Shown in pieces: positions 9,225 to 45,375 of a stretch of 64,000 bases of DNA; position 1 is the first letter of the stretch; each line of letters opens with the position of its first letter. Source of the stretch: Candidatus Nealsonbacteria bacterium. GTDB lineage: Bacteria > Patescibacteriota > Minisyncoccia > Minisyncoccales > RBG-13-36-15. The stretch lies in contig DRFQ01000009.1 in NCBI GenBank assembly GCA_011050465.1, positions 128,334 through 192,333 of the forward strand. Direction: 5' to 3'. The notes below the pieces were generated by a model. That model worked only from the letters and a program-made list of their open reading frames with translations. It had not been told where the DNA came from and did no database searches. A program made the position numbers and the translations under genes.

Positions 9225-9527
9225 TTAATCAAACGACGCAGACGGTCCTCTTTCTGAGTTTATAACAAACTGTACCATGGCTTGAAGGTGGCGAAAGTTA
9301 GTTCTATCATAAACTCCAATGCCAATAGGTCGACCACCAGACCACCAAAATACTTGGTGTCTTCCAATGCCATTAGTCGAACCCTTATATGTCCATGTTC
9401 CCCTTCTTGTATTAATTTCTACTTCCTCTGGCGCCCTTTTTTGTAAACTAATGAAACTATGGTTATTTGGAACAGGCGCAAGAAAAACTAAGTTCCTTCT
9501 CTTGTACTTCACTCTGGGAGTCGACAT
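9225..9527 (-). CDS. hypothetical protein (100 aa), cassette gene
   Basis: AAGGAGGGGAAGG SD; promoter at 9564-9591; terminator at 9160-9190. Confidence 0.5.
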   Translation of the reverse strand: MSTPRVKYKRRNLVFLAPVPNNHSFISLQKRAPEEVEINTRRGTWTYKGSTNGIGRHQVFWWSGGRPIGIGVYDRTNFRHLQAMVQFVINSERGPSASFD

Positions 9528-9563
9528 CCTTCCCCTCCTTGTCTTGGTAATGCTGCTAAGAAT

Positions 9564-9591
9564 AGTCTACAAAATATTCGATATAAGTCAA
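9564..9591 (-). promoter_or_regulatory. promoter (same family as 9112-9139)
   Basis: Minus strand reads CCTCGGGCTTGACT-N16-TAGACT. Confidence 0.6.
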
Positions 9592-9609
9592 GCCCGAGGC
9601 AACCACAAA

Positions 9610-9800
9610 ACAAAAAGCCGAGGACACAATTTGGATTGGATTAACCAGAACTCGGGTTGTCCCCAGCCTTGGAGAATGGCATCGTACTTCGTGGGTTTAC
9701 CACCAGTAAGCTTTACCCCCTCCTTGATGGATGGGGTTGGTTGGCCAGGGTTGACGCGAGGGTTCGGCTCTAATCTTACTGACTTCCCAACCTCATCCGT
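9610..9800 (-). ncRNA. candidate about 190-nt structured transcript (motif X, copy 1)
   Basis: Consensus promoter at 9806-9834 and a hairpin plus T-run at about 9610-9660. No plausible start codon. The 5' end is homologous to the leader at 43876-44023. Confidence 0.35.
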
Positions 9801-19738: not shown

Positions 19739-20296
19739 TTACCATTTTTCCCAATGAATGTTGTTTTCTTTGAATTTGTCTTTTGGCGGTTGGTTTTTTT
19801 TAACCGGCACGCCAATCGGAATAACATTTAAAGGAATAACATATTCAGGAACTCCTAGAATTTTCTGAACATTTTTAACTAATGCCTCGGCGGGAAAAAT
19901 CGCAGTCCAAACCGCGCCATAGCCCAAAGCATGCGCGGCTAATAAAATATTTTCTGAGGCGGCTGAGCAGTCCTGAACCCAAAAATCTTTGAGTAACGAC
20001 TTTATCACCACTTTAAGCACAAGATTTAAAAGCTTTGATTTGTCGGGTAAACCGCAAACCACAATGGCCGCGCCGGCTTTTGAAAGCATTTTGGCGTAAG
20101 GCAGCTTTTCACAAAGTGCGTCTAAAGTTTCCCGCTTAGTCACAACGACAAATGACCAGGGCTGTTGATTAACGGCCGATGGCGCCGACATCGCTGCTTT
20201 TAATATCGTCAACAAATCCTCTTTTTTAACTTCATTCCCCGTGAATTCCCGGATGCTATGGCGAGTAAGAATATTTTTTAGAGCTTCGTTTTCCAT
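19739..20296 (-). CDS. nitroreductase family protein
   Basis: RHSIREF, APSAVNQQPW and GAVW pattern. Confidence 0.85.
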   Translation of the reverse strand: MENEALKNILTRHSIREFTGNEVKKEDLLTILKAAMSAPSAVNQQPWSFVVVTKRETLDALCEKLPYAKMLSKAGAAIVVCGLPDKSKLLNLVLKVVIKSLLKDFWVQDCSAASENILLAAHALGYGAVWTAIFPAEALVKNVQKILGVPEYVIPLNVIPIGVPVKKNQPPKDKFKENNIHWEKW

Positions 20297-36830: not shown

Positions 36831-36905
36831 AAGGTTATTTTAATTAATCTACCTTAATTTTGCCACTTTTGGATTATTTTGTCTATTTATCAAAGATCTA
36901 AATAC

Positions 36906-36935
36906 TCGACATTTGTCGACATTTGTCGACATTTT
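36906..36935. repeat. three 10-bp-phased TGTCGACA palindromes (iteron/operator-like)
   Basis: TCGACATTTGTCGACATTTGTCGACATTTT, 76-105 bp upstream of the methylase ATG. Confidence 0.8.
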
Positions 36936-36939
36936 CTTG

Positions 36940-36953
36940 AAATGTCGCACAAG
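36940..36953 (-). repeat. right copy of the 14-bp inverted repeat
   Basis: Plus strand reads AAATGTCGCACAAG, the reverse complement of 25499-25512. Confidence 0.85.
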
Positions 36954-36994
36954 ATGCGTTATGCGACGCACATCATGATTATACGTATCAGGGA

Positions 36995-37027
36995 AACAAA
37001 AAAGGCCTCTGGCTGGTGCCTGAGGCT
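36995..37027 (-). terminator. T1-family terminator (cassette a)
   Basis: Minus strand reads GCCTCAGGCACCAGCCAGAGGCC plus a T-run. The 30 nt at 36999-37028 are identical to 37464-37493. Confidence 0.8.
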
Positions 37028-37040
37028 AAGGAATTCTTGA

Positions 37041-37388
37041 TTAGAGGGCTGCGAAAAGTTCTTTTAGTGCAGGAAGCTCCTCTTTGCAAATAGTAAGGTG
37101 TCGAGATGGCCATCCGCCAAAACTCATTTTTGATTTATTCCCTATCAATAGTCTGTAATAGTATTCTTCTTCTACTAATCGTGCTACCCTTGGTGCTTTT
37201 TCTGTTGCTATGGAGCCTCTAAGCCGAACTTCTCCTACGATTCTTGTTTTATTTCCCCTTTCCTTTTCCATTTTTGGGTCTACTCTACGAATAGTCTCAA
37301 CGAAAGCTGAAATCGAGTGTGTTCCGCTTCTTCTTCTGGCAGAACGACGAGCACTTAGAACTATTGCACTTGTTGTTCTTTTTGCCAT
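37041..37388 (-). CDS. hypothetical protein (115 aa), cassette a
   Basis: Track ORF trimmed: the -10 box sits at 37432-37437, and GGAGGTGAAAACAATG gives MAKRTTSAIV... Confidence 0.55.
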   Translation of the reverse strand: MAKRTTSAIVLSARRSARRRSGTHSISAFVETIRRVDPKMEKERGNKTRIVGEVRLRGSIATEKAPRVARLVEEEYYYRLLIGNKSKMSFGGWPSRHLTICKEELPALKELFAAL

Positions 37389-37431
37389 TGTTTTCACCTC
37401 CACAGGTTGTATAAGAGCTATTTGATACTTC

Positions 37432-37460
37432 ACCCTATTACATCCTTAGTTTTTTGTCAA
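37432..37460 (-). promoter_or_regulatory. P1-family promoter (cassette a)
   Basis: Minus strand reads TTGACAAAAAACTAAGGATGTAATAGGGT. Confidence 0.65.
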
Positions 37461-37462
37461 AA

Positions 37463-37491
37463 CAAAAAGGCCTCTGGCTGGTGCCTGAGGC
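37463..37491 (-). terminator. T1-family terminator (cassette b)
   Basis: Identical hairpin to cassette a. Its T-run runs straight into the -35 of promoter a. Confidence 0.8.
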
Positions 37492-37534
37492 TATGGAAAG
37501 AACAAAAAAACCTTGTATTGTATGTGAAGGTTCT

Positions 37535-37777
37535 TTAATACCCCGTCGTAAAAATTGTAATCGTTATAAAAAACGATAATAATACATATAGTAAAATGAA
37601 GGTTCTCTTGCCTTCTTGCAACCAAAAGGTGAACGAGGCTATCCACATACTAACTGCCATAATAAAATGCAAGAAAATGGAACCAAAAAAGATATTTAAC
37701 ATACTCATAACAACCACAAAAAAAATAATTCTTAGGGCGATACTTCTCTTCTCTATACTTTGATCCATTGTCCTCAT
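37535..37777 (-). CDS. small membrane protein (80 aa, 3 TM), cassette b
   Basis: Hydrophobic throughout; own promoter and terminator. Confidence 0.55.
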   Translation of the reverse strand: MRTMDQSIEKRSIALRIIFFVVVMSMLNIFFGSIFLHFIMAVSMWIASFTFWLQEGKRTFILLYVLLSFFITITIFTTGY

Positions 37778-37813
37778 TTCCTAGTTTGGAACGAACTAAC
37801 GAAGAACTGCTTA

Positions 37814-37842
37814 ACTCTATTACAACCTTAGTTATTTGTCAA
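37814..37842 (-). promoter_or_regulatory. P1-family promoter (cassette b)
   Basis: Minus strand reads TTGACAAATAACTAAGGTTGTAATAGAGT. Confidence 0.65.
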
Positions 37843-37843
37843 A

Positions 37844-37867
37844 CCCTTCGATAAACTCAGGGTAAAC
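37844..37867. repeat. GC-rich mini-repeat copy (inverted orientation)
   Basis: CCCTTCGATAAACTCAGGGTAAAC, wedged between terminator c and promoter b. Confidence 0.6.
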
Positions 37868-37900
37868 AAAAAGGCCTCGATGCTCTGCTGAGCCGAGGCT
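37866..37900 (-). terminator. terminator (cassette c)
   Basis: Minus strand reads GCCTCGGCTCAGCAGAGCATCGAGGCC plus TTTTTGTTT. Confidence 0.7.
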
Positions 37901-37917
37901 TGTACAGAATATGTCTC

Positions 37918-38235
37918 TTAGTTCAAAAGTTTTTGAAGATCTTCTCCTTGTAGAACTTGCCGTTGACCTTCTGTTGGCTCAAAAGTTAGCTGTTCTGAAA
38001 CCCAGATAAATAGGGATCCTCTTTGAAGAAATCTTTCTCTTTGAAGAAAAATAAATCTTCCCTTTGGAGTTACGATCGAGACCTCACGGTTACAAAGATC
38101 GCTTGGTATTCCAAAGGGATCGCCGAACGTTACAACTTGAAGATCAGAAAGACTCAAAGCAATATTGTTGGTTGCTGCCAGTTTTTCTGCGGCTTTCATC
38201 TCTTCTGAAATTTCGGTTAGGTCGATTCTGTCCAC
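37918..38235 (-). CDS. hypothetical protein (105 aa), cassette c
   Basis: GTG start 6 nt after AAGGAGG. Confidence 0.55.
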   Translation of the reverse strand: MDRIDLTEISEEMKAAEKLAATNNIALSLSDLQVVTFGDPFGIPSDLCNREVSIVTPKGRFIFLQRERFLQRGSLFIWVSEQLTFEPTEGQRQVLQGEDLQKLLN

Positions 38236-38282
38236 GTTTCCCCTCCTTATTTAGGAATGAATGAACTAATTAACGATTTTTA

Positions 38283-38311
38283 ATTATATTACATCCTTAG
38301 TTATTTGTCAA
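38283..38311 (-). promoter_or_regulatory. P1-family promoter (cassette c)
   Basis: Minus strand reads TTGACAAATAACTAAGGATGTAATATAAT. Confidence 0.7.
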
Positions 38312-38451
38312 CTCAAAATAGCCCTATTTTTGGAAAAAATCAAATTCCTTCCCCACCCCGCCTATCGATATCTGTCTACCGACAAATCCACAAAAAATAC
38401 CATAGCGGGAACAAGCTAAAAAATTATTAGGGCTTTAACGACGTGCAACCG

Positions 38452-38480
38452 TTGACAAATCACTAAAAATATAATATGGT
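38452..38480 (+). promoter_or_regulatory. P1-family promoter (cassette d)
   Basis: TTGACAAATCACTAAAAATATAATATGGT. The 5'UTR (CTTATACAACGGAGGTAAAAACAATG) is homologous to that of cassette a. Confidence 0.65.
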
Positions 38481-38522
38481 TAGATATCAATAGATAGCCC
38501 TTATACAACGGAGGTAAAAACA

Positions 38523-38717
38523 ATGAAAGGAAGCGAAGTAGTAGGAAAGTGCCCACACTGTGGAGGAGACATTATTGACCGAAAAAAGCTCGTGGGTATA
38601 GTTGCCATTTTGATGCAAAGTCCGACACCAGAACTGGCTGTTGAAAAAATAACAGAGAATGAAAAGCCATATTTCTGCGGCGATTGTAGTGAGGAATTCG
38701 ACACTGTTCCGTCGTAA
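38523..38717 (+). CDS. zinc-ribbon protein (64 aa), cassette d
   Basis: CPHCGG...CGDC. Confidence 0.6.
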   Translation: MKGSEVVGKCPHCGGDIIDRKKLVGIVAILMQSPTPELAVEKITENEKPYFCGDCSEEFDTVPS

Positions 38718-38742
38718 CCGATTAGAGAGCTTTCGTTCATAT

Positions 38743-38776
38743 CCTCAGGCGCAAGCCAGAGGCCTTTTTTGTTTTT
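38743..38776 (+). terminator. T1-family terminator (cassette d)
   Basis: CCTCAGGCGCAAGCCAGAGGCC plus TTTTTTGTTTTT. Confidence 0.8.
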
Positions 38777-38847
38777 CTCTTGATCCCCTACCACTTTTTA
38801 TCTTTTATGTTTACATTCTATCTCAAACCTAAAAAAGTGGTGGGGGG

Positions 38848-38875
38848 TTGACTAAAGCTGTAGAAGAATTATCAT
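38848..38875 (+). promoter_or_regulatory. promoter of structured element copy 1
   Basis: GGTGGGGGGTTGACT-N16-TATCAT, about 85% identical to 44487-44520 on the minus strand. Confidence 0.6.
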
Positions 38876-38881
38876 TAACTC

Positions 38882-39079
38882 AGGAGAGAGGAGGTGGTCG
38901 CTTTTACCTTCGCGAACAACCCAGGCTGGGGCGGCCTGGGACGAATGACCTCCCTCTGGTCATTGGTCACTTTCTCTCTCCTATCAACTCTTTACAGTTC
39001 TTTCTACGACAAGCTCTTTGGGACGTATGTCCCACATCGCAGGGCCACCACCAACAACAACATCGGTGGCCTTTTTTTT
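38882..39079 (+). ncRNA. structured non-coding element, copy 1 (about 200 nt)
   Basis: 15-bp closing helix GGAGAGAGGAGGTGG / CCACTTTCTCTCTCC. Inner hairpins CCCAGGC/GCCTGGG and AATGACC/GGTCATT. 3' hairpin TGGGAC-GTAT-GTCCCA, then terminator GGCCACC...GGTGGCC plus T8. Confidence 0.5.
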
Positions 39080-39106
39080 GACAAATCATTAAGGATGTAA
39101 TATGGT
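39078..39106 (+). promoter_or_regulatory. P1-family promoter
   Basis: TTGACAAATCATTAAGGATGTAATATGGT; its -35 overlaps the preceding T-run. Confidence 0.65.
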
Positions 39107-39151
39107 TAAGTAGCAATAAACAGCACATTCCCAAGAAGAAGGGAATCAAAG

Positions 39152-39550
39152 ATGGCTCAAAGCCCATCGGAAATAGAAAAGAAAACCCGCCTTAAAGAAT
39201 TATGGATGTTACTATTTGGTAACCCAATCAATCTAACTGACCCCGAGATTGAAAGATTACTTGAGTCTGAAAAAGAACTTAGAACAATTTTGCATTTTAC
39301 CTACAGTGGATTTCCCCATCAGATAGAAAGAGTAAAAAAACATCATGCCAAAAAGAAAGAGCTATCTGAACTGCCTACAGAGAAGTTGGTGGAAATGAAA
39401 TGTGCGATAGAAGAAAATAGACTGGCTGTTCTTAGGTCAACCAACGAGGAAGAACTTTCAGATTCATTCTTTGAGGCTCCTCCCATTGACTCCAATGAAC
39501 ACATCCTGAATGAGATTCTAAAAGAACGGGGTGTTGACTGGCGAAAATAG
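39152..39550 (+). CDS. hypothetical protein (132 aa), cassette e
   Basis: Own P1 promoter and terminator. Confidence 0.55.
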   Translation: MAQSPSEIEKKTRLKELWMLLFGNPINLTDPEIERLLESEKELRTILHFTYSGFPHQIERVKKHHAKKKELSELPTEKLVEMKCAIEENRLAVLRSTNEEELSDSFFEAPPIDSNEHILNEILKERGVDWRK

Positions 39551-39588
39551 AAAGATTCTTAAACAGGCAATCCCGATTCGATATATAA

Positions 39589-39622
39589 GCCTCTGGCTCA
39601 CGCTAAGAGGCCTTTTTGTTTT
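39589..39622 (+). terminator. T1-like terminator (cassette e)
   Basis: GCCTCTGGCTCACGCTAAGAGGCC plus TTTTTGTTTT. Confidence 0.75.
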
Positions 39623-39720
39623 CCGGCTTGCCTCGGGCTTGAATTCTTTTATTTAACATGATAGGCTAAAAATCCAAACATAGCACCTTTACAGCTTAGA
39701 CCGAAAAGGGGGTAAGAAAA

Positions 39721-40293
39721 GTGAAATACCTCTTGTTGCTTTATCTAATCCAGCCCTACATAGATGTTTTCATTGGCGAAGAACCGCCCGACGTAAAGAA
39801 AAAATTTGCTGCCCTCTATAAAAAGATTGTGCGAGAAAGATATCCAGGGTTCCAAGTAGTTTGTGTATTTTTTTCTAAACCAAGCGAAAAAAAAGAACCT
39901 GACCTTTCTCAGAAGTGGGATATTTTTTCACTTGAAGAAAGCTATACTATAGAGGCCTGTGGAGTAACATTCGCTGATCATTGTGATAATCAAACATATC
40001 CCAAAGAAAACGACATTCTTGAATTATGTCCTGGCCCAATTGATGAATTGATTGTTAGCGGATTCCATTTTTCTGATTGCGTAGAAAAAATTGCCAAGTT
40101 TGCCCACAAGCAAGGCATTCAAGTTTTTGTAGATGAAGATCTAACAGAATTATTCTTTTATGGAATAAAAATGGGAGTTCCAATTTCTCGTGAAGCAAGC
40201 ATAAGAAGAACAAAAAAGTTGTTCAGAGAAAGTTTGCTTCTGGATTTTGTGCGCGAAAACCGTAAAGGGAGACCATGGCTGGTCCAGCTTTAA
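39721..40293 (+). CDS. hypothetical protein (190 aa), weak isochorismatase/cysteine-hydrolase-like C-terminal pattern
   Basis: GTG start after AAGGGGG. LIVSGFHFSDCVEKIAKFAHKQGIQVFVDEDL resembles the isochorismatase-fold core. Promoter CCTCGGGCTTGAAT at about 39633-39670. Confidence 0.5.
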   Translation: MKYLLLLYLIQPYIDVFIGEEPPDVKKKFAALYKKIVRERYPGFQVVCVFFSKPSEKKEPDLSQKWDIFSLEESYTIEACGVTFADHCDNQTYPKENDILELCPGPIDELIVSGFHFSDCVEKIAKFAHKQGIQVFVDEDLTELFFYGIKMGVPISREASIRRTKKLFRESLLLDFVRENRKGRPWLVQL

Positions 40294-40493
40294 GCTGAGT
40301 CACCAATACGACTTGGCTTTTTTTGTTCTTAATGACCAATAGTAGCTCGCCGTTTGTAACCTAAGAAGCCATGGATAATGGTCTGCTAATCTCTCGACTC
40401 CGCTCAGGGTGGTAAGCCTATCGAACCATTGGCTTAAGTTTGAGATGGAGGCAAGGATTTAATGCCCGAGAGTTGTTGCCCCTCGTGAAAAAC

Positions 40494-40522
40494 TTGACAA
40501 ATTCAAAGTATGGGAGTATAAT
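40494..40522 (+). promoter_or_regulatory. consensus promoter of structured element copy 2
   Basis: TTGACA-N17-TATAAT. Confidence 0.65.
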
Positions 40523-40528
40523 GCTATT

Positions 40529-40797
40529 ATTGACTGATATTCGTTCTTTTTGAAAAAATGTTGTCAGCTATTCAGCAAATTGTTCATCTGAAAAGGTGGT
40601 CAGCTTGCTGGACAGATGAAAGGAGACGTTCGCCAATAGCCCAAGATGGTGGAGCTGTCGCAGGCGCCGGCCAGCTTGGGCGCACTAGATCAACCAGATC
40701 ATCCGCGCGTATACCTGCCATCTGTTCGGCACAGCACTTTTCGAGGACTTATGTCCTCACCTATAGGGTCACCCATAACAACAACGGTGGCCCTTTT
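40529..40797 (+). ncRNA. candidate non-coding transcript sharing the 3' module of copy 1
   Basis: GAGGAC-TTAT-GTCCTC hairpin plus GGGTCACC..AACAACAAC..GGTGGCCC terminator. There are two compensatory changes relative to 39019-39071. Confidence 0.35.
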
Positions 40798-40829
40798 ACT
40801 TTCTACCTATCTTTTAGATGGGTTTTTGT

Positions 40830-40858
40830 TTGACAAATAACTAGAAATGTAATAATAT
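40830..40858 (+). promoter_or_regulatory. P1-family promoter
   Basis: TTGACAAATAACTAGAAATGTAATAATAT. Confidence 0.6.
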
Positions 40859-40903
40859 CGAATTAAATAGTACATTTGTCGCCATAACGACAAGGAGGTA
40901 GTA

Positions 40904-41083
40904 ATGGCGAACGAGATTTTATTATGCGGCGGCGCAGTTTTACAAGGCGTCGAGAGAGCGGTTGATGAGGGGGGTGAGGATCTTGTTGTCACCCTAGAAA
41001 ATGTAGGGACAGTTCTTGTTCCTAAAGGGAATATAGCAAAGATTGACATACTAATAGAAACCGAAGAAGAACCCGACGAATAA
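40904..41083 (+). CDS. hypothetical acidic protein (59 aa, below the track cutoff), cassette f
   Basis: AAGGAGGTAGTAATG. MANEILLCGGAVLQGVERAVDEGGEDLVVTLENVGTVLVPKGNIAKIDILIETEEEPDE. Terminator at 41124-41151. Confidence 0.55.
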   Translation: MANEILLCGGAVLQGVERAVDEGGEDLVVTLENVGTVLVPKGNIAKIDILIETEEEPDE

Positions 41084-41123
41084 ATAATTTCTAGTTCTTT
41101 ACTTACTATTCAATCCTTCTTCA

Positions 41124-41151
41124 AGGTCTCGCTCAGAGACCTTTTTGTTTT
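41124..41151 (+). terminator. intrinsic terminator (cassette f)
   Basis: AGGTCTC-GCTCA-GAGACCT plus TTTTGTTTT. Confidence 0.75.
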
Positions 41152-41171
41152 CAAAAGGAGTTATTGGGCTT

Positions 41172-41246
41172 GCCCTCCCAAATTCGCCGCAGAGGCGAAC
41201 TTAGGCGGGCTTGACTTATTTATTGAGGTTGTTATGATATAAAATC
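41172..41246 (+). repeat. 75-bp inverted repeat, left arm (hairpin plus promoter)
   Basis: GCCCTCCCAAATTCGCCGCAGAGGCGAACTTAGGCGGGCTTGACTTATTTATTGAGGTTGTTATGATATAAAATC. 74/75 identical to the reverse complement of 45285-45359. Confidence 0.9.
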
Positions 41247-41283
41247 GTAGAGGAAGGACAGCACTTTCAAGGAGGTTAAAAAG

Positions 41284-41568
41284 GTGGCAGAGACAACCGA
41301 AAACAAACGGCAAAGTGGACAAGTCAAAGATGGAAAATGGTTGGTGCTAACCGAGAGTACTAGAAAGCCAGACAAGTGCTATACACATACCTGTGGCACA
41401 GAAATTTTAGGCGAAAAAATAGCTCATCCTGTTTGGGATGGTCCGACTCCACTTTCTGGACACGGTCAGTGCGAATATGAAATGGTTCCTTATTGTCCAA
41501 AATGCGAAAATAAACCAAACCCTCAAGGGGTGCCGATAACTCCCAAGGGTAGCCATCGTAATCTTTGA
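41284..41568 (+). CDS. zinc-ribbon protein, paralog of 2054..2371
   Basis: GTG start 8 nt after AAGGAGG; shared C..CG..IL...VPYCP.CE..P pattern. Confidence 0.6.
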   Translation: MAETTENKRQSGQVKDGKWLVLTESTRKPDKCYTHTCGTEILGEKIAHPVWDGPTPLSGHGQCEYEMVPYCPKCENKPNPQGVPITPKGSHRNL

Positions 41569-41752
41569 CCTAATTACTTTATAGGTTCTTGGTAGAAGTT
41601 CTTTTAATTAATCCGATATAAACCGCAATCCGGCTCAAGGTCCTCCCGACACTCGTCAGGAGGCTTTTTTATTTCCCCGATACGCTCACAGGACAGAAAC
41701 TAAAAAAAACGGCACGAAATTATCGTACCGACCAAAACAGCAACACGTATTT

Positions 41753-44307: not shown

Positions 44308-44351
44308 TTCGGTTTACCTCCTTTCCTGCAATCATTCTTAAAAGAACTAGT

Positions 44352-44480
44352 AGGAGAGAGAAAGTGGCAGGGTTATGGGGGGAACACAGCAGGTCACGTG
44401 CGTTCCCGTGGCACCTTGGGTGAAGGTGATAGCTCTCTCTCCGCGTGAAGAGGGAGGTCAAGAACCACCTTCTCTCTCCC
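44352..44480 (-). ncRNA. structured non-coding element, copy 3 (acts as a 5' leader)
   Basis: 15-bp helix GGAGAGAGAAGGTGG / CCACTTTCTCTCTCC encloses a divergent 97-nt core with GGGAAC/GTTCCC and CACCTT/AAGGTG hairpins. Confidence 0.45.
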
Positions 44481-44486
44481 AAGTTA

Positions 44487-44514
44487 ATTATAGCTCTTCT
44501 ACATTTTTAGTCAA
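44487..44514 (-). promoter_or_regulatory. promoter of structured element copy 3
   Basis: Minus strand reads GGTGGGGTTGACT-N16-TATAAT. Confidence 0.65.
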
Positions 44515-44688
44515 CCCCACCACCAATCCTAGGTTAGTCTATTGAACTTACAACGACTTAAGCCGATAGGCGGCTTCGCCTTATGGCTTTTTTAAATTCA
44601 TCATGCCTTGGCTGGGACTGGTGGGGGGCCAAGAAACAAACAAAAAGGCCTCTTGGCATAAGCCAGAGGCTATAAAAAGATTGGTTTT

Positions 44689-45207
44689 TCAATGATTCAC
44701 CGCTCTTAACGTTTCCTCTTCTAATCTAGAGATAAGATCTTGATTAGCGTTAAAAAAGTAGCGATGTGTCCTTCCTTCTTTTTCTATGCGAATCAAATTT
44801 GCTCTCCGAAGATTACCCACCATTCCCCAAACAGACCTTCTGGTTAAGTATCTTGCTTCGGCAATATCTTTTATGGTACAGCCAGGGTTTTTTATAATAT
44901 AAAGCAGAGTGAAACCTTCTGTGGTGAAAAATTGGCGTTCGGGAGAATTATTGTCTGCATTTTGTATAATATCTAAAGGGTTACGGCTGGCAGAGTGATA
45001 GTGTTTTCTACCTATTTTTTCAAAAGATATATATTCCCCTTGAATTAAGAGACATGTATGGTCAAAAAATCCCCAGACAGTTCGTCTGGTCAAACCCAAG
45101 GCATCGCCAATCTGAGAAACTGTTGGTTCTTCTCCTTTTTGATTTTTTTGTCTAATAAAAAAGTAAACCGAACCAACGGTTGACAGAAGCCGAATATCTT
45201 CTCCCAT
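44689..45207 (-). CDS. tandem winged-helix (HTH) DNA-binding protein
   Basis: Two repeats: VSQIGDALGLTRRTVWGFF and IKDIAEARYLTRRSVWGMVGNL. Confidence 0.7.
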   Translation of the reverse strand: MGEDIRLLSTVGSVYFFIRQKNQKGEEPTVSQIGDALGLTRRTVWGFFDHTCLLIQGEYISFEKIGRKHYHSASRNPLDIIQNADNNSPERQFFTTEGFTLLYIIKNPGCTIKDIAEARYLTRRSVWGMVGNLRRANLIRIEKEGRTHRYFFNANQDLISRLEEETLRAVNH

Positions 45208-45284
45208 CGTTCTCTCCTTTCCTTGTTCGCCTTTTTCGCAGCTACTCTCTATTCAATTAGGAAGGTACAGACCCTCCTGCCTAT

Positions 45285-45359
45285 GATTTTATATCTTAAC
45301 AACCTCAATAAATAAGTCAAGCCCGCCTAAGTTCGCCTCTGCGGCGAATTTGGGAGGGC
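45285..45359 (-). repeat. 75-bp inverted repeat, right arm
   Basis: Reverse complement of 41172-41246 with one mismatch in the -10 box (TAAGAT versus TATGAT). Confidence 0.9.
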
Positions 45360-45375
45360 AAATTTAAGAAACCCT

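Follow-up and report, generated by a model that had tools for sequence, protein, structure and literature searches.

A shared two-hairpin 3' end on two predicted small RNAs in a mosaic cassette island of a Candidatus Nealsonbacteria contig

The window analyzed in this study comprises 64,000 nucleotides of contig DRFQ01000009.1 of a Candidatus Nealsonbacteria bacterium (assembly GCA_011050465.1). A 5-kb island (~36850-41700) made up of tightly packed cassettes is located in it between restriction-modification genes and obg. Virtually identical DNA is present in several assemblies obtained from marine sediment and from enrichment cultures, and the closest Obg proteins were those of Minisyncoccales/Nealsonbacteria, which places the host in the Patescibacteria (candidate phyla radiation). 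Direct repeats of ACATTTGTCGAC were found at 36905-36935, before an EcoRI-type methylase gene, and the same region is conserved beside a different methylase in a related locus (L123, 10595-10760); the repeats are possibly an operator of the restriction-modification system.

Two transcripts, RNA1 and RNA2, were predicted within the island, with the following features:

38848..38875, + strand, RNA1 promoter, type A, TTGACT-16-TATCAT (predicted, 10/12 matches to the sigma-70-type consensus)
38882-39079, + strand, RNA1, predicted transcript of ~198 nt
38882..38983, + strand, 5' domain of RNA1, a ~15-pair purine/pyrimidine clamp helix (GGAGAGAGGAGGUG / CACUUUCUCUCUCCU) around three hairpins, GC 58%
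38984..39018, + strand, RNA1 linker, predicted to be single-stranded, pyrimidine-rich, with AGUUCUUU
40494..40522, + strand, RNA2 promoter, perfect TTGACA-17-TATAAT (predicted, 12/12 matches to the consensus)
40529-40799 or 40832, + strand, RNA2, predicted transcript of ~270-300 nt
40529..40742, + strand, RNA2 body, long-range helix-rich fold, core GC 57%

From these consensus matches we infer that transcription starts and stops at the predicted sites. The RNA1 promoter is part of a block of 37 nt (GGGGTTGACTAAA..TGTAGAAGA..TAT.ATTAACT), a second occurrence of which was found on the - strand at 44518-44482. The bodies of RNA1 and RNA2 have a GC content of 49-58%, compared with 36.5% for the window, and both fold more stably than shuffled controls (RNA1, -82.8 kcal/mol, z -6.5; RNA2, z -4.9 to -6.9). 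No similarity between the two bodies was detected by BLAST, in agreement with the first-pass annotation, which had called the transcripts otherwise unrelated. Between the terminator of a gene for a 190-aa protein and the RNA2 promoter there is a stretch of 190 nt (40300-40490, 45% G+C) without a credible ORF.

Both transcripts are overlapped by ORFs, those of 68-91 aa having already been suspected of being non-coding. The codon scores of the overlapping ORFs were -0.03 to +0.12 per codon, compared with 0.28 ± 0.05 for 37 long genes and 0.21-0.48 for seven of eight real small genes of the island, the exception being an 80-aa membrane protein with a score of 0.06. None of the overlapping ORFs had a Pfam or PADLOC match, those on the + strand were left uncalled by the gene callers in the five assemblies listed, and the 91-aa ORF matched itself alone among 1.84 billion representative proteins. 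Low codon scores, the lack of domains and, for the 91-aa ORF, the lack of a homologue thus bear the suspicion out. No tRNA or tmRNA was found in the transcripts, and neither the window nor nine related loci gave a match at the gathering threshold when searched against Rfam release 15. Among sub-threshold matches, isrD scored highest over the shared 3' end described below (17.4 bits, threshold 37). In RNA1, two hairpins (38918-38984) weakly resembled the Chlorobi-RRM RNA (RF01697; 27.5 bits, E 0.005, gathering score 45), but this match does not cover the shared 3' end, the phylum differs, and it was treated as chance. Because of the promoters, the strong folds, the absence of an Rfam match and the absence of a coding signal, the best reading is that RNA1 and RNA2 are most probably structured, promoter-driven, non-coding RNAs.

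The two predicted transcripts end in two copies of one module:

39019-39034, + strand, copy 1, hairpin H1, TGGGAC-GUAU-GUCCCA (sequence, fold)
between 39034 (end of H1) and 39041 (start of the terminator), + strand, copy 1, spacer CATCGC
39041-39073, + strand, copy 1, terminator AGGGCCACC-(ACCAACAACAACATC)-GGTGGCCTT with arms 39041-39049 and 39065-39073 (sequence, fold); as RNA, a 9-bp stem AGGGCCACC/GGUGGCCUU and a 15-nt loop (39050-39064)
39053-39061, + strand, AACAACAAC within the copy 1 terminator loop
39072-39079, + strand, copy 1 tail, a run of 8 T (U), the last two of which open the -35 of the next promoter (39078)
40743-40758, + strand, copy 2, hairpin H1, GAGGAC-UUAU-GUCCUC (sequence, fold)
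between 40758 (end of H1) and 40765 (start of the terminator), + strand, copy 2, spacer ACCTAT
40765-40794, + strand, copy 2, terminator AGGGTCACC-(CATAACAACAAC)-GGTGGCCCT with arms 40765-40773 and 40786-40794 (sequence, fold); as RNA, a 9-bp stem AGGGUCACC/GGUGGCCCU with one U-G pair and a 12-nt loop CAUAACAACAAC
40765-40803, + strand, copy 2 terminator element including its tail TTTACTTTCT, the U tract of which is interrupted (UUUACUUUC)
40805-40832, + strand, backup (distal) terminator ACCUAUC-UUUU-AGAUGGGU followed by UUUUUGUUU (terminator scan)

The layout common to both copies is thus a 6-bp hairpin with a 4-nt loop, a 6-nt spacer and a 9-bp terminator stem with 6-7 G-C pairs, whose loop of 15 or 12 nt contains AACAACAAC. 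At both sites the sequence matches the earlier description of a 6-bp hairpin with an NTAT loop followed by a terminator with AACAACAAC in its loop; the terminator stems, however, are 9 bp in either copy and not 7 and 8 bp, as had been given. The module is indeed shared, as that description held, by the ends of two transcripts, whose promoters and extents are predictions rather than observations; in copy 2 the interrupted U tract is followed after 10 nt by the backup terminator, whose own U tract extends into the -35 of the promoter that follows (40830).

The resemblance of the two copies is beyond chance. The pattern GGACNTATGTCC-N(8-30)-AACAACAAC matched twice in the window against 0.00 matches expected, BLAST of either copy against the window retrieved the other one (E = 4e-4 to 7e-4), and a covariance model built from both copies found these two sites alone in 208 kb, with 88 and 80 bits. 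Between the copies, the loop of the hairpin and the bases that close it (TATGTCC) are identical. In the isolated modules both hairpins appeared in the minimum-free-energy and centroid folds (z -4.5 and -5.6), and both H1 hairpins were also present in the folds of the whole transcripts; the - strand of the modules folded more weakly. Pair probabilities were 0.86-1.0 for the hairpin and terminator of copy 2 and 0.95-1.0 for the terminator of copy 1, except for its outermost pair (0.66), while for the copy 1 hairpin the support comes from the folds of the isolated module and of whole RNA1 rather than from pair probabilities.

By sequence, the module is a predicted intrinsic terminator with an accessory hairpin, placed at the ends of unannotated, predicted small RNAs in a poorly studied phylum. 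As in Rho-independent terminators generally, a stable G+C-rich stem stands directly before a U-rich tract at the end of a transcription unit (8 U in copy 1; UUUACUUUC plus the backup in copy 2, which gives this copy a tandem, backed-up form). The module differs from this class in its loops, which measure 15 and 12 nt instead of the typical 3-8 nt and contain a conserved A/C word, and in the separate conserved 6-bp hairpin 6 nt upstream. Intrinsic termination works poorly with loops of 12-15 nt. Because of these loops, both terminators were missed by a simple scan and found with a relaxed one. Knowledge of non-coding RNAs in Patescibacteria is, as far as we are aware, very limited, and a literature search returned nothing relevant on such RNAs or on this motif.

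The island around the two RNAs is built from parts that are used repeatedly. A second promoter type, type B (TTGACAAATAACTAAGGATGTAATA), is present in six near-identical copies over 25 nt including the spacer, all within 37436-40854 and nowhere else in the window. A AGAGGCCTTTTTGTTT terminator family likewise recurs in the island, and its U tracts often abut or overlap the next -35. A paralogue of the RNA1 promoter and clamp helix, RNA3, lies beyond the island:

37436-37460, 37818-37842 and 38287-38311, - strand, type-B promoters (sequence identity)
38452-38476, 39078-39102 and 40830-40854, + strand, type-B promoters (sequence identity)
36994-37033, 37459-37498 and 37857-37900, terminators GCCTCWGGC-loop-GCCWGAGGCC-TTTTTGTTT after protein genes
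38743-38775, 39590-39622, 41127-41152 and 44638-44677, further terminators of the same family after protein genes
44341..44525, - strand, RNA3, paralogue of the RNA1 promoter and clamp helix (BLAST)

The identity of the type-B promoters suggests a common regulator or a very recent duplication of cassettes. They form two arms that diverge from ~38320-38450, and each would drive a small protein of unknown family. RNA3 is 85% identical to RNA1 over 62 nt and also shares the 3' strand of the helix, but its interior differs; it leads into a 51-codon TTG ORF (44307-44152) with a terminator of its own, not the module. In both RNA1 and RNA3 the clamp (GGAGAGAG.../...CUCUCUCC) is joined to a type-A promoter. 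The clamp helices form a family (GGGAGAGAG... / ...CUCUCUCCC) without an Rfam match, in which the helix starts only a few bases from the predicted transcript start and surrounds interiors that vary from 43 to 155 nt. Its members are RNA1, the RNA3 leader, a free-standing RNA in a related locus (L128, 1415-1665) and the leader of a 94-aa gene in another one (L126, 195-260). AGUUCUUU follows the clamp helix in RNA1, RNA3 and the L128 RNA, and the L126 leader has the variant AGUUUCUU. The L128 RNA adjoins a homologue of the 190-aa protein and ends in a plain UUCG terminator, from which it follows that the 3' end of this RNA family is interchangeable. By sequence, RNA1 would accordingly be a clamp plus the module with no coding sequence between them, and RNA2 a different body plus the module.

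Other repeats were observed in the same region. An 81-nt inverted repeat (41170-41250 and 45281-45361, 97.5% identical) covers the promoter region of a 94-aa gene (41284) and the region upstream of a MarR-like gene (44689-45207, - strand). A further inverted repeat, CCCCYACCA ... TGGTGGGG, is located upstream of both type-A promoters (38783-38847; 44523-44630, - strand), where it encloses ~40 and ~90 nt and its G-rich arm abuts the -35.

Further copies of the module were sought, as the first-pass annotation had proposed, and none was present in the window, in ~145 kb from relatives or among the matches listed from three public collections; the search did yield one related architecture, in L126. 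In 185,579 species genomes the pattern GGACNTATGTCC-N(8-30)-AACAACAAC matched 20 times, never with a terminator, and since ~25 were expected by chance according to our estimate, all 20 were treated as chance. In a metagenome scan with AACAACAAC-N(0-4)-GGTGGCC-N(0-1)-TTTT, the matches listed (at least 80 loci) were an unrelated repeat and coding sequences; the source contig itself was missing among them, and the pattern was poorly chosen. Six patterns, of which four represented the module or parts next to it, produced chance matches or none in viral contigs, and RNA1, RNA2 and the 190-aa protein were all without a match in a phage database. In four relatives with Obg proteins 86-93% identical, RNA1, RNA2 and RNA3 were absent near obg and only the immediate obg flanks were conserved. 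Homologues of a 132-aa protein of the island (54% identity) were found in other contexts, in which RNA1 was absent. The homologues of the 190-aa protein led to L126, with its related module, and to L128, with its RNA1 relative, while the other loci with such homologues, L123-L125 and L127, contained nothing relevant to the module. In L115 the covariance model (E 0.27) had picked up a tRNA gene, namely its T arm together with the terminator of the gene.

The contig L126, 2.4 kb in length, encodes a 190-aa protein with 84% identity to the one in the island. Its 94-aa gene has a transcript that opens with the GGAGAGAG clamp, as RNA1 does, and the gene is followed by a hairpin GAGCGU-GCCA-GCGUUC (6 bp, 4-nt loop, with a G-T pair), a spacer with unpaired ACAACAAC, so that the A/C word lies there in the spacer and not in the loop, and a terminator consisting of a 10-bp stem (GAGACCACAC...GUGUGGUCUC), a 12-nt loop and a U-rich tail. 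At 807-859 there is a backup terminator 79-83% identical to the one behind copy 2 (40805-40832). Of arbitrary points, 1.8% are expected to have a hairpin of 6 bp with a 4-nt loop at that distance, only 3/109 terminator-like sites in ~200 kb of the lineage showed this architecture with a G+C-rich hairpin, and the 8-mer ACAACAAC occurs nine times in 367 kb of single strand, or once per ~40 kb of strand. The homology of L126 to the module is based on the architecture, the ACAACAAC word and the flanking terminator; the two-copy covariance model scored 9.5 bits on L126 (E 0.1), on the terminator part alone. Since MAFFT failed to reproduce the structural alignment, the three-way alignment was scripted by hand, and in this structure-guided form L126 brings a further two double changes to the hairpin and four to the terminator, every pair staying intact. 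The locus supports a conserved two-hairpin 3' end. As the architecture follows a protein-coding gene there, the module would also serve an mRNA and is not special to RNA1 and RNA2. RNA2 was also considered as a decayed form of the L126 94-aa gene, and translated similarity was absent.

The covariation between the two copies had been the original argument for selection on RNA structure over coding. In the two-copy alignment all 30 stem cells pair. The hairpins (TGGGAC/GTCCCA versus GAGGAC/GTCCTC) differ by two double changes, T-A to G-C and G-C to A-U, and both are truly compensatory, as had been claimed. The terminator stems differ by two one-sided changes, which are paired solely as G-U on the + strand, and no change disrupts a pair. 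When the proposed statistical check was run on these n=2 copies, the two double and two one-sided changes were reached by 117 of 500 shuffles, and the chance of two changed positions re-pairing was 0.06-0.14. The original argument therefore holds in part: the G-U changes favour a constraint on the + strand RNA, and hence on RNA rather than a DNA palindrome, and the ORFs are without a coding signal, but the covariation is insignificant. Selection on structure gains indirect support from L126 as a single related locus, in which a hairpin of the same dimensions but another sequence stands equally far from a large-loop terminator.

Taken together, the module is probably a re-used 3'-end or terminator cassette, spread by duplication and shuffling and structurally constrained, that ends two small, probably non-coding RNAs. 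Both copies would derive from one ancestral sequence via duplication or recombination, in an island assembled from duplicated and shuffled parts, namely type-A and type-B promoters, the 5' clamp helix, the AGAGGCCTTTTTGTTT terminators and the module itself. The mosaic context, the occurrence on an mRNA in L126 and the re-used 5' half of RNA1 suggest that shuffling of cassettes, more than a regulatory function common to both RNAs, lies behind the shared end. The terminator with its large unpaired A/C-rich loop would stop transcription, and its stems would be kept because the RNA must fold to do so; the A/C loop would need no role beyond being unpaired. A leaky copy 2 terminator would account for the backup terminator. 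The stems probably also shield the 3' end from exonucleases, H1 and the terminator stem presumably protecting it together. This resembles 5'/3' stabiliser stem-loops (the ompA and aprE 5' hairpins; exonuclease-blocking 3' stem-loops), since RNA1 has a helix within a few bases of its predicted start as well as 3' stem-loops, and in L126 a protein gene is bounded by ends of both kinds. In contrast to such stabilisers, the ends of RNA1 enclose no coding sequence, and a stabilising role would be one by analogy. The identical hairpin loop and closing bases are not required by a structural role, and a recent duplication would give them. Plain termination accounts neither for the excess size of the loop nor for the exactness with which AACAACAAC is conserved or the persistence of unpaired ACAACAAC in L126, which hints at a further function.

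This hint bears on a possible but doubtful alternative, namely that the hairpin and the single-stranded AACAACAAC beside the terminator and U tail recruit an RNA chaperone or another RNA-binding protein. AACAACAAC is identical in the copies in spite of the divergence of the spacer and of the other loop positions, the rare ACAACAAC is kept unpaired in L126, albeit in the spacer, and the module loops are far larger than termination requires. AACAACAA fits (ARN)n and AAnAAnAA, which we take to be motifs bound by Hfq in other bacteria. The module would thus resemble the Hfq/ProQ-FinO 3' modules of enterobacterial small RNAs in its order of hairpin, single-stranded stretch, terminator hairpin and U tail behind differing bodies, and in its unpaired (ARN)3-like word; the unpaired stretch, however, is A/C-rich and inside the terminator loop here, whereas there it is U-rich and upstream of the terminator. 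AACAACAA, predicted to be unpaired, likewise matches the CA motifs (AAnAAnAA) of Pseudomonas CrcZ/CrcY and of Hfq/Crc targets, but each RNA has a single motif here, compared with several in CrcZ, and the lineage is unrelated. No Hfq/ProQ-type chaperone is known to us in this Patescibacteria genome. Moreover, the module or its A/C word is found in three instances only, domain searches recognised no RNA-binding domain in the island proteins, and the sequence identity is equally given by a recent duplication. A broader form of the idea is more doubtful still: a 3' tag marking a few island-encoded RNAs and mRNAs in these episymbiotic bacteria for a novel RNA-binding protein (for stabilisation, sequestration or delivery), which would make RNA1, RNA2 and the clamp RNAs founding members of regulatory families specific to this lineage of the candidate phyla radiation. 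If the A/C word is a binding site, a factor that binds RNA would be expected in these organisms, whose genomes are very reduced. If it is not, the module is a cautionary case in which two paralogous terminators of a mosaic island, differing by two compensatory changes, mimic covariation with almost no statistical weight.

The remaining alternatives fit the evidence less well than the cassette reading. A conditional terminator, in which upstream domains of RNA1 and RNA2 sense a signal and gate read-through into the next gene, seems improbable to us. Each module does have a small gene of its own strand immediately downstream (132 aa at 39152; 59 aa at 40904), the weak U tract of copy 2 needs a backup terminator, and the clamp domain is the 5' leader of an ORF in RNA3 and L126; but the downstream genes each have their own type-B promoter after the terminator, copy 1 combines a strong stem with eight U, and folds of the transcripts, complete or cut before the 3' arm, revealed no strong alternative partner of the terminator 5' arm, and none common to RNA1 and RNA2, that could act as an antiterminator. 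There is very little probability in a very small protein opened by the ATG in the hairpin loop (21 codons, 39027-39092; 29 codons, 40751-40840). The start codon does occupy the same place in copies 1 and 2, with a GTG ORF of L126 in the matching frame, and the frame is kept by the 3-nt loop indel and by the 24-nt difference from L126; Thr-Thr-Thr is encoded in all three micro-ORFs and ST(Y/H)LLDGFL is common to copy 2 and L126, and GAGG lies 4 nt before the copy 2 ATG. The stop codons, however, lie past the U tracts, so that terminated transcripts would be without a stop, and the Shine-Dalgarno-like sequence, weak in copy 1, is buried with the start in the hairpin. The copies differ mostly at codon positions 1 and 2, only one of the five codons changed between copy 2 and L126 is synonymous, two of these codon changes are C-G/U-G swaps that keep the stem of the backup terminator paired, and the codon score of the copy 1 micro-ORF is 0.05. 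An element acting at the DNA level, with the palindromes as a recombination site or an operator for shuffling or regulating cassettes, would suit the visibly mosaic island and is just as improbable as the micro-ORF. Compensatory changes are required by a perfect palindrome as well, so that the two double changes fit DNA and RNA alike, but the G-T pairs in both terminator stems and in the L126 hairpin would be mismatches in DNA or on the other strand, where the module folds more weakly. In addition, the spacing between module and following promoter is not constant (51 versus 79 nt), the island has no recombinase gene, no integrase is present among the called genes of the region, and inspection of both copies found no attC core sites (RYYYAAC/GTTRRRY). 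As for the loop as a base-pairing seed, its 9-nt complements in the window lie inside a wrong-strand gene, a promoter or the middle of a coding region. We consider the base-pairing seed, the micro-ORF and the DNA-level site unlikely.

The value of the locus lies more in its unannotated Patescibacteria RNAs and its mosaic cassette island than in the covariation. The window offers three predicted promoter-driven, strongly folded, G+C-rich RNAs outside every Rfam family, and their 5' and 3' ends appear interchangeable and are common to protein-coding cassettes in relatives.

Several elements in the related loci are of interest in their own right. L123 contains two tandem units (9505-9790), each opening with GTAGGTCTGGCTGTGGTGCT behind the promoter TTGACAnACATTYGTAATCTATGYTAATTTATATG; the first one ends in a hairpin terminator, the second enters a stretch of N, and both adjoin a homologue of the 190-aa protein. 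From their sequence, these units are candidate small RNAs of the lineage. L126 (1-60, 1621-1690 and 2240-2275) and L125 (3715-3770) contain copies of an intergenic repeat (..GGTTCTAAAGTCGTCCAAGCCCC..) with the terminator AAATCGCCAAGAAGGCGGTTTTTTG behind it, and this terminator type recurs in L030 and L032. In L115, a relative with an Obg protein 91% identical and a locus without an Rfam match at the gathering score, ARAGORN predicted an 85-nt tRNA (19952-20036) beside an IS1595 transposase. Its anticodon, TTA, would read the UAA stop, and this gene may be a suppressor tRNA or a miscall.
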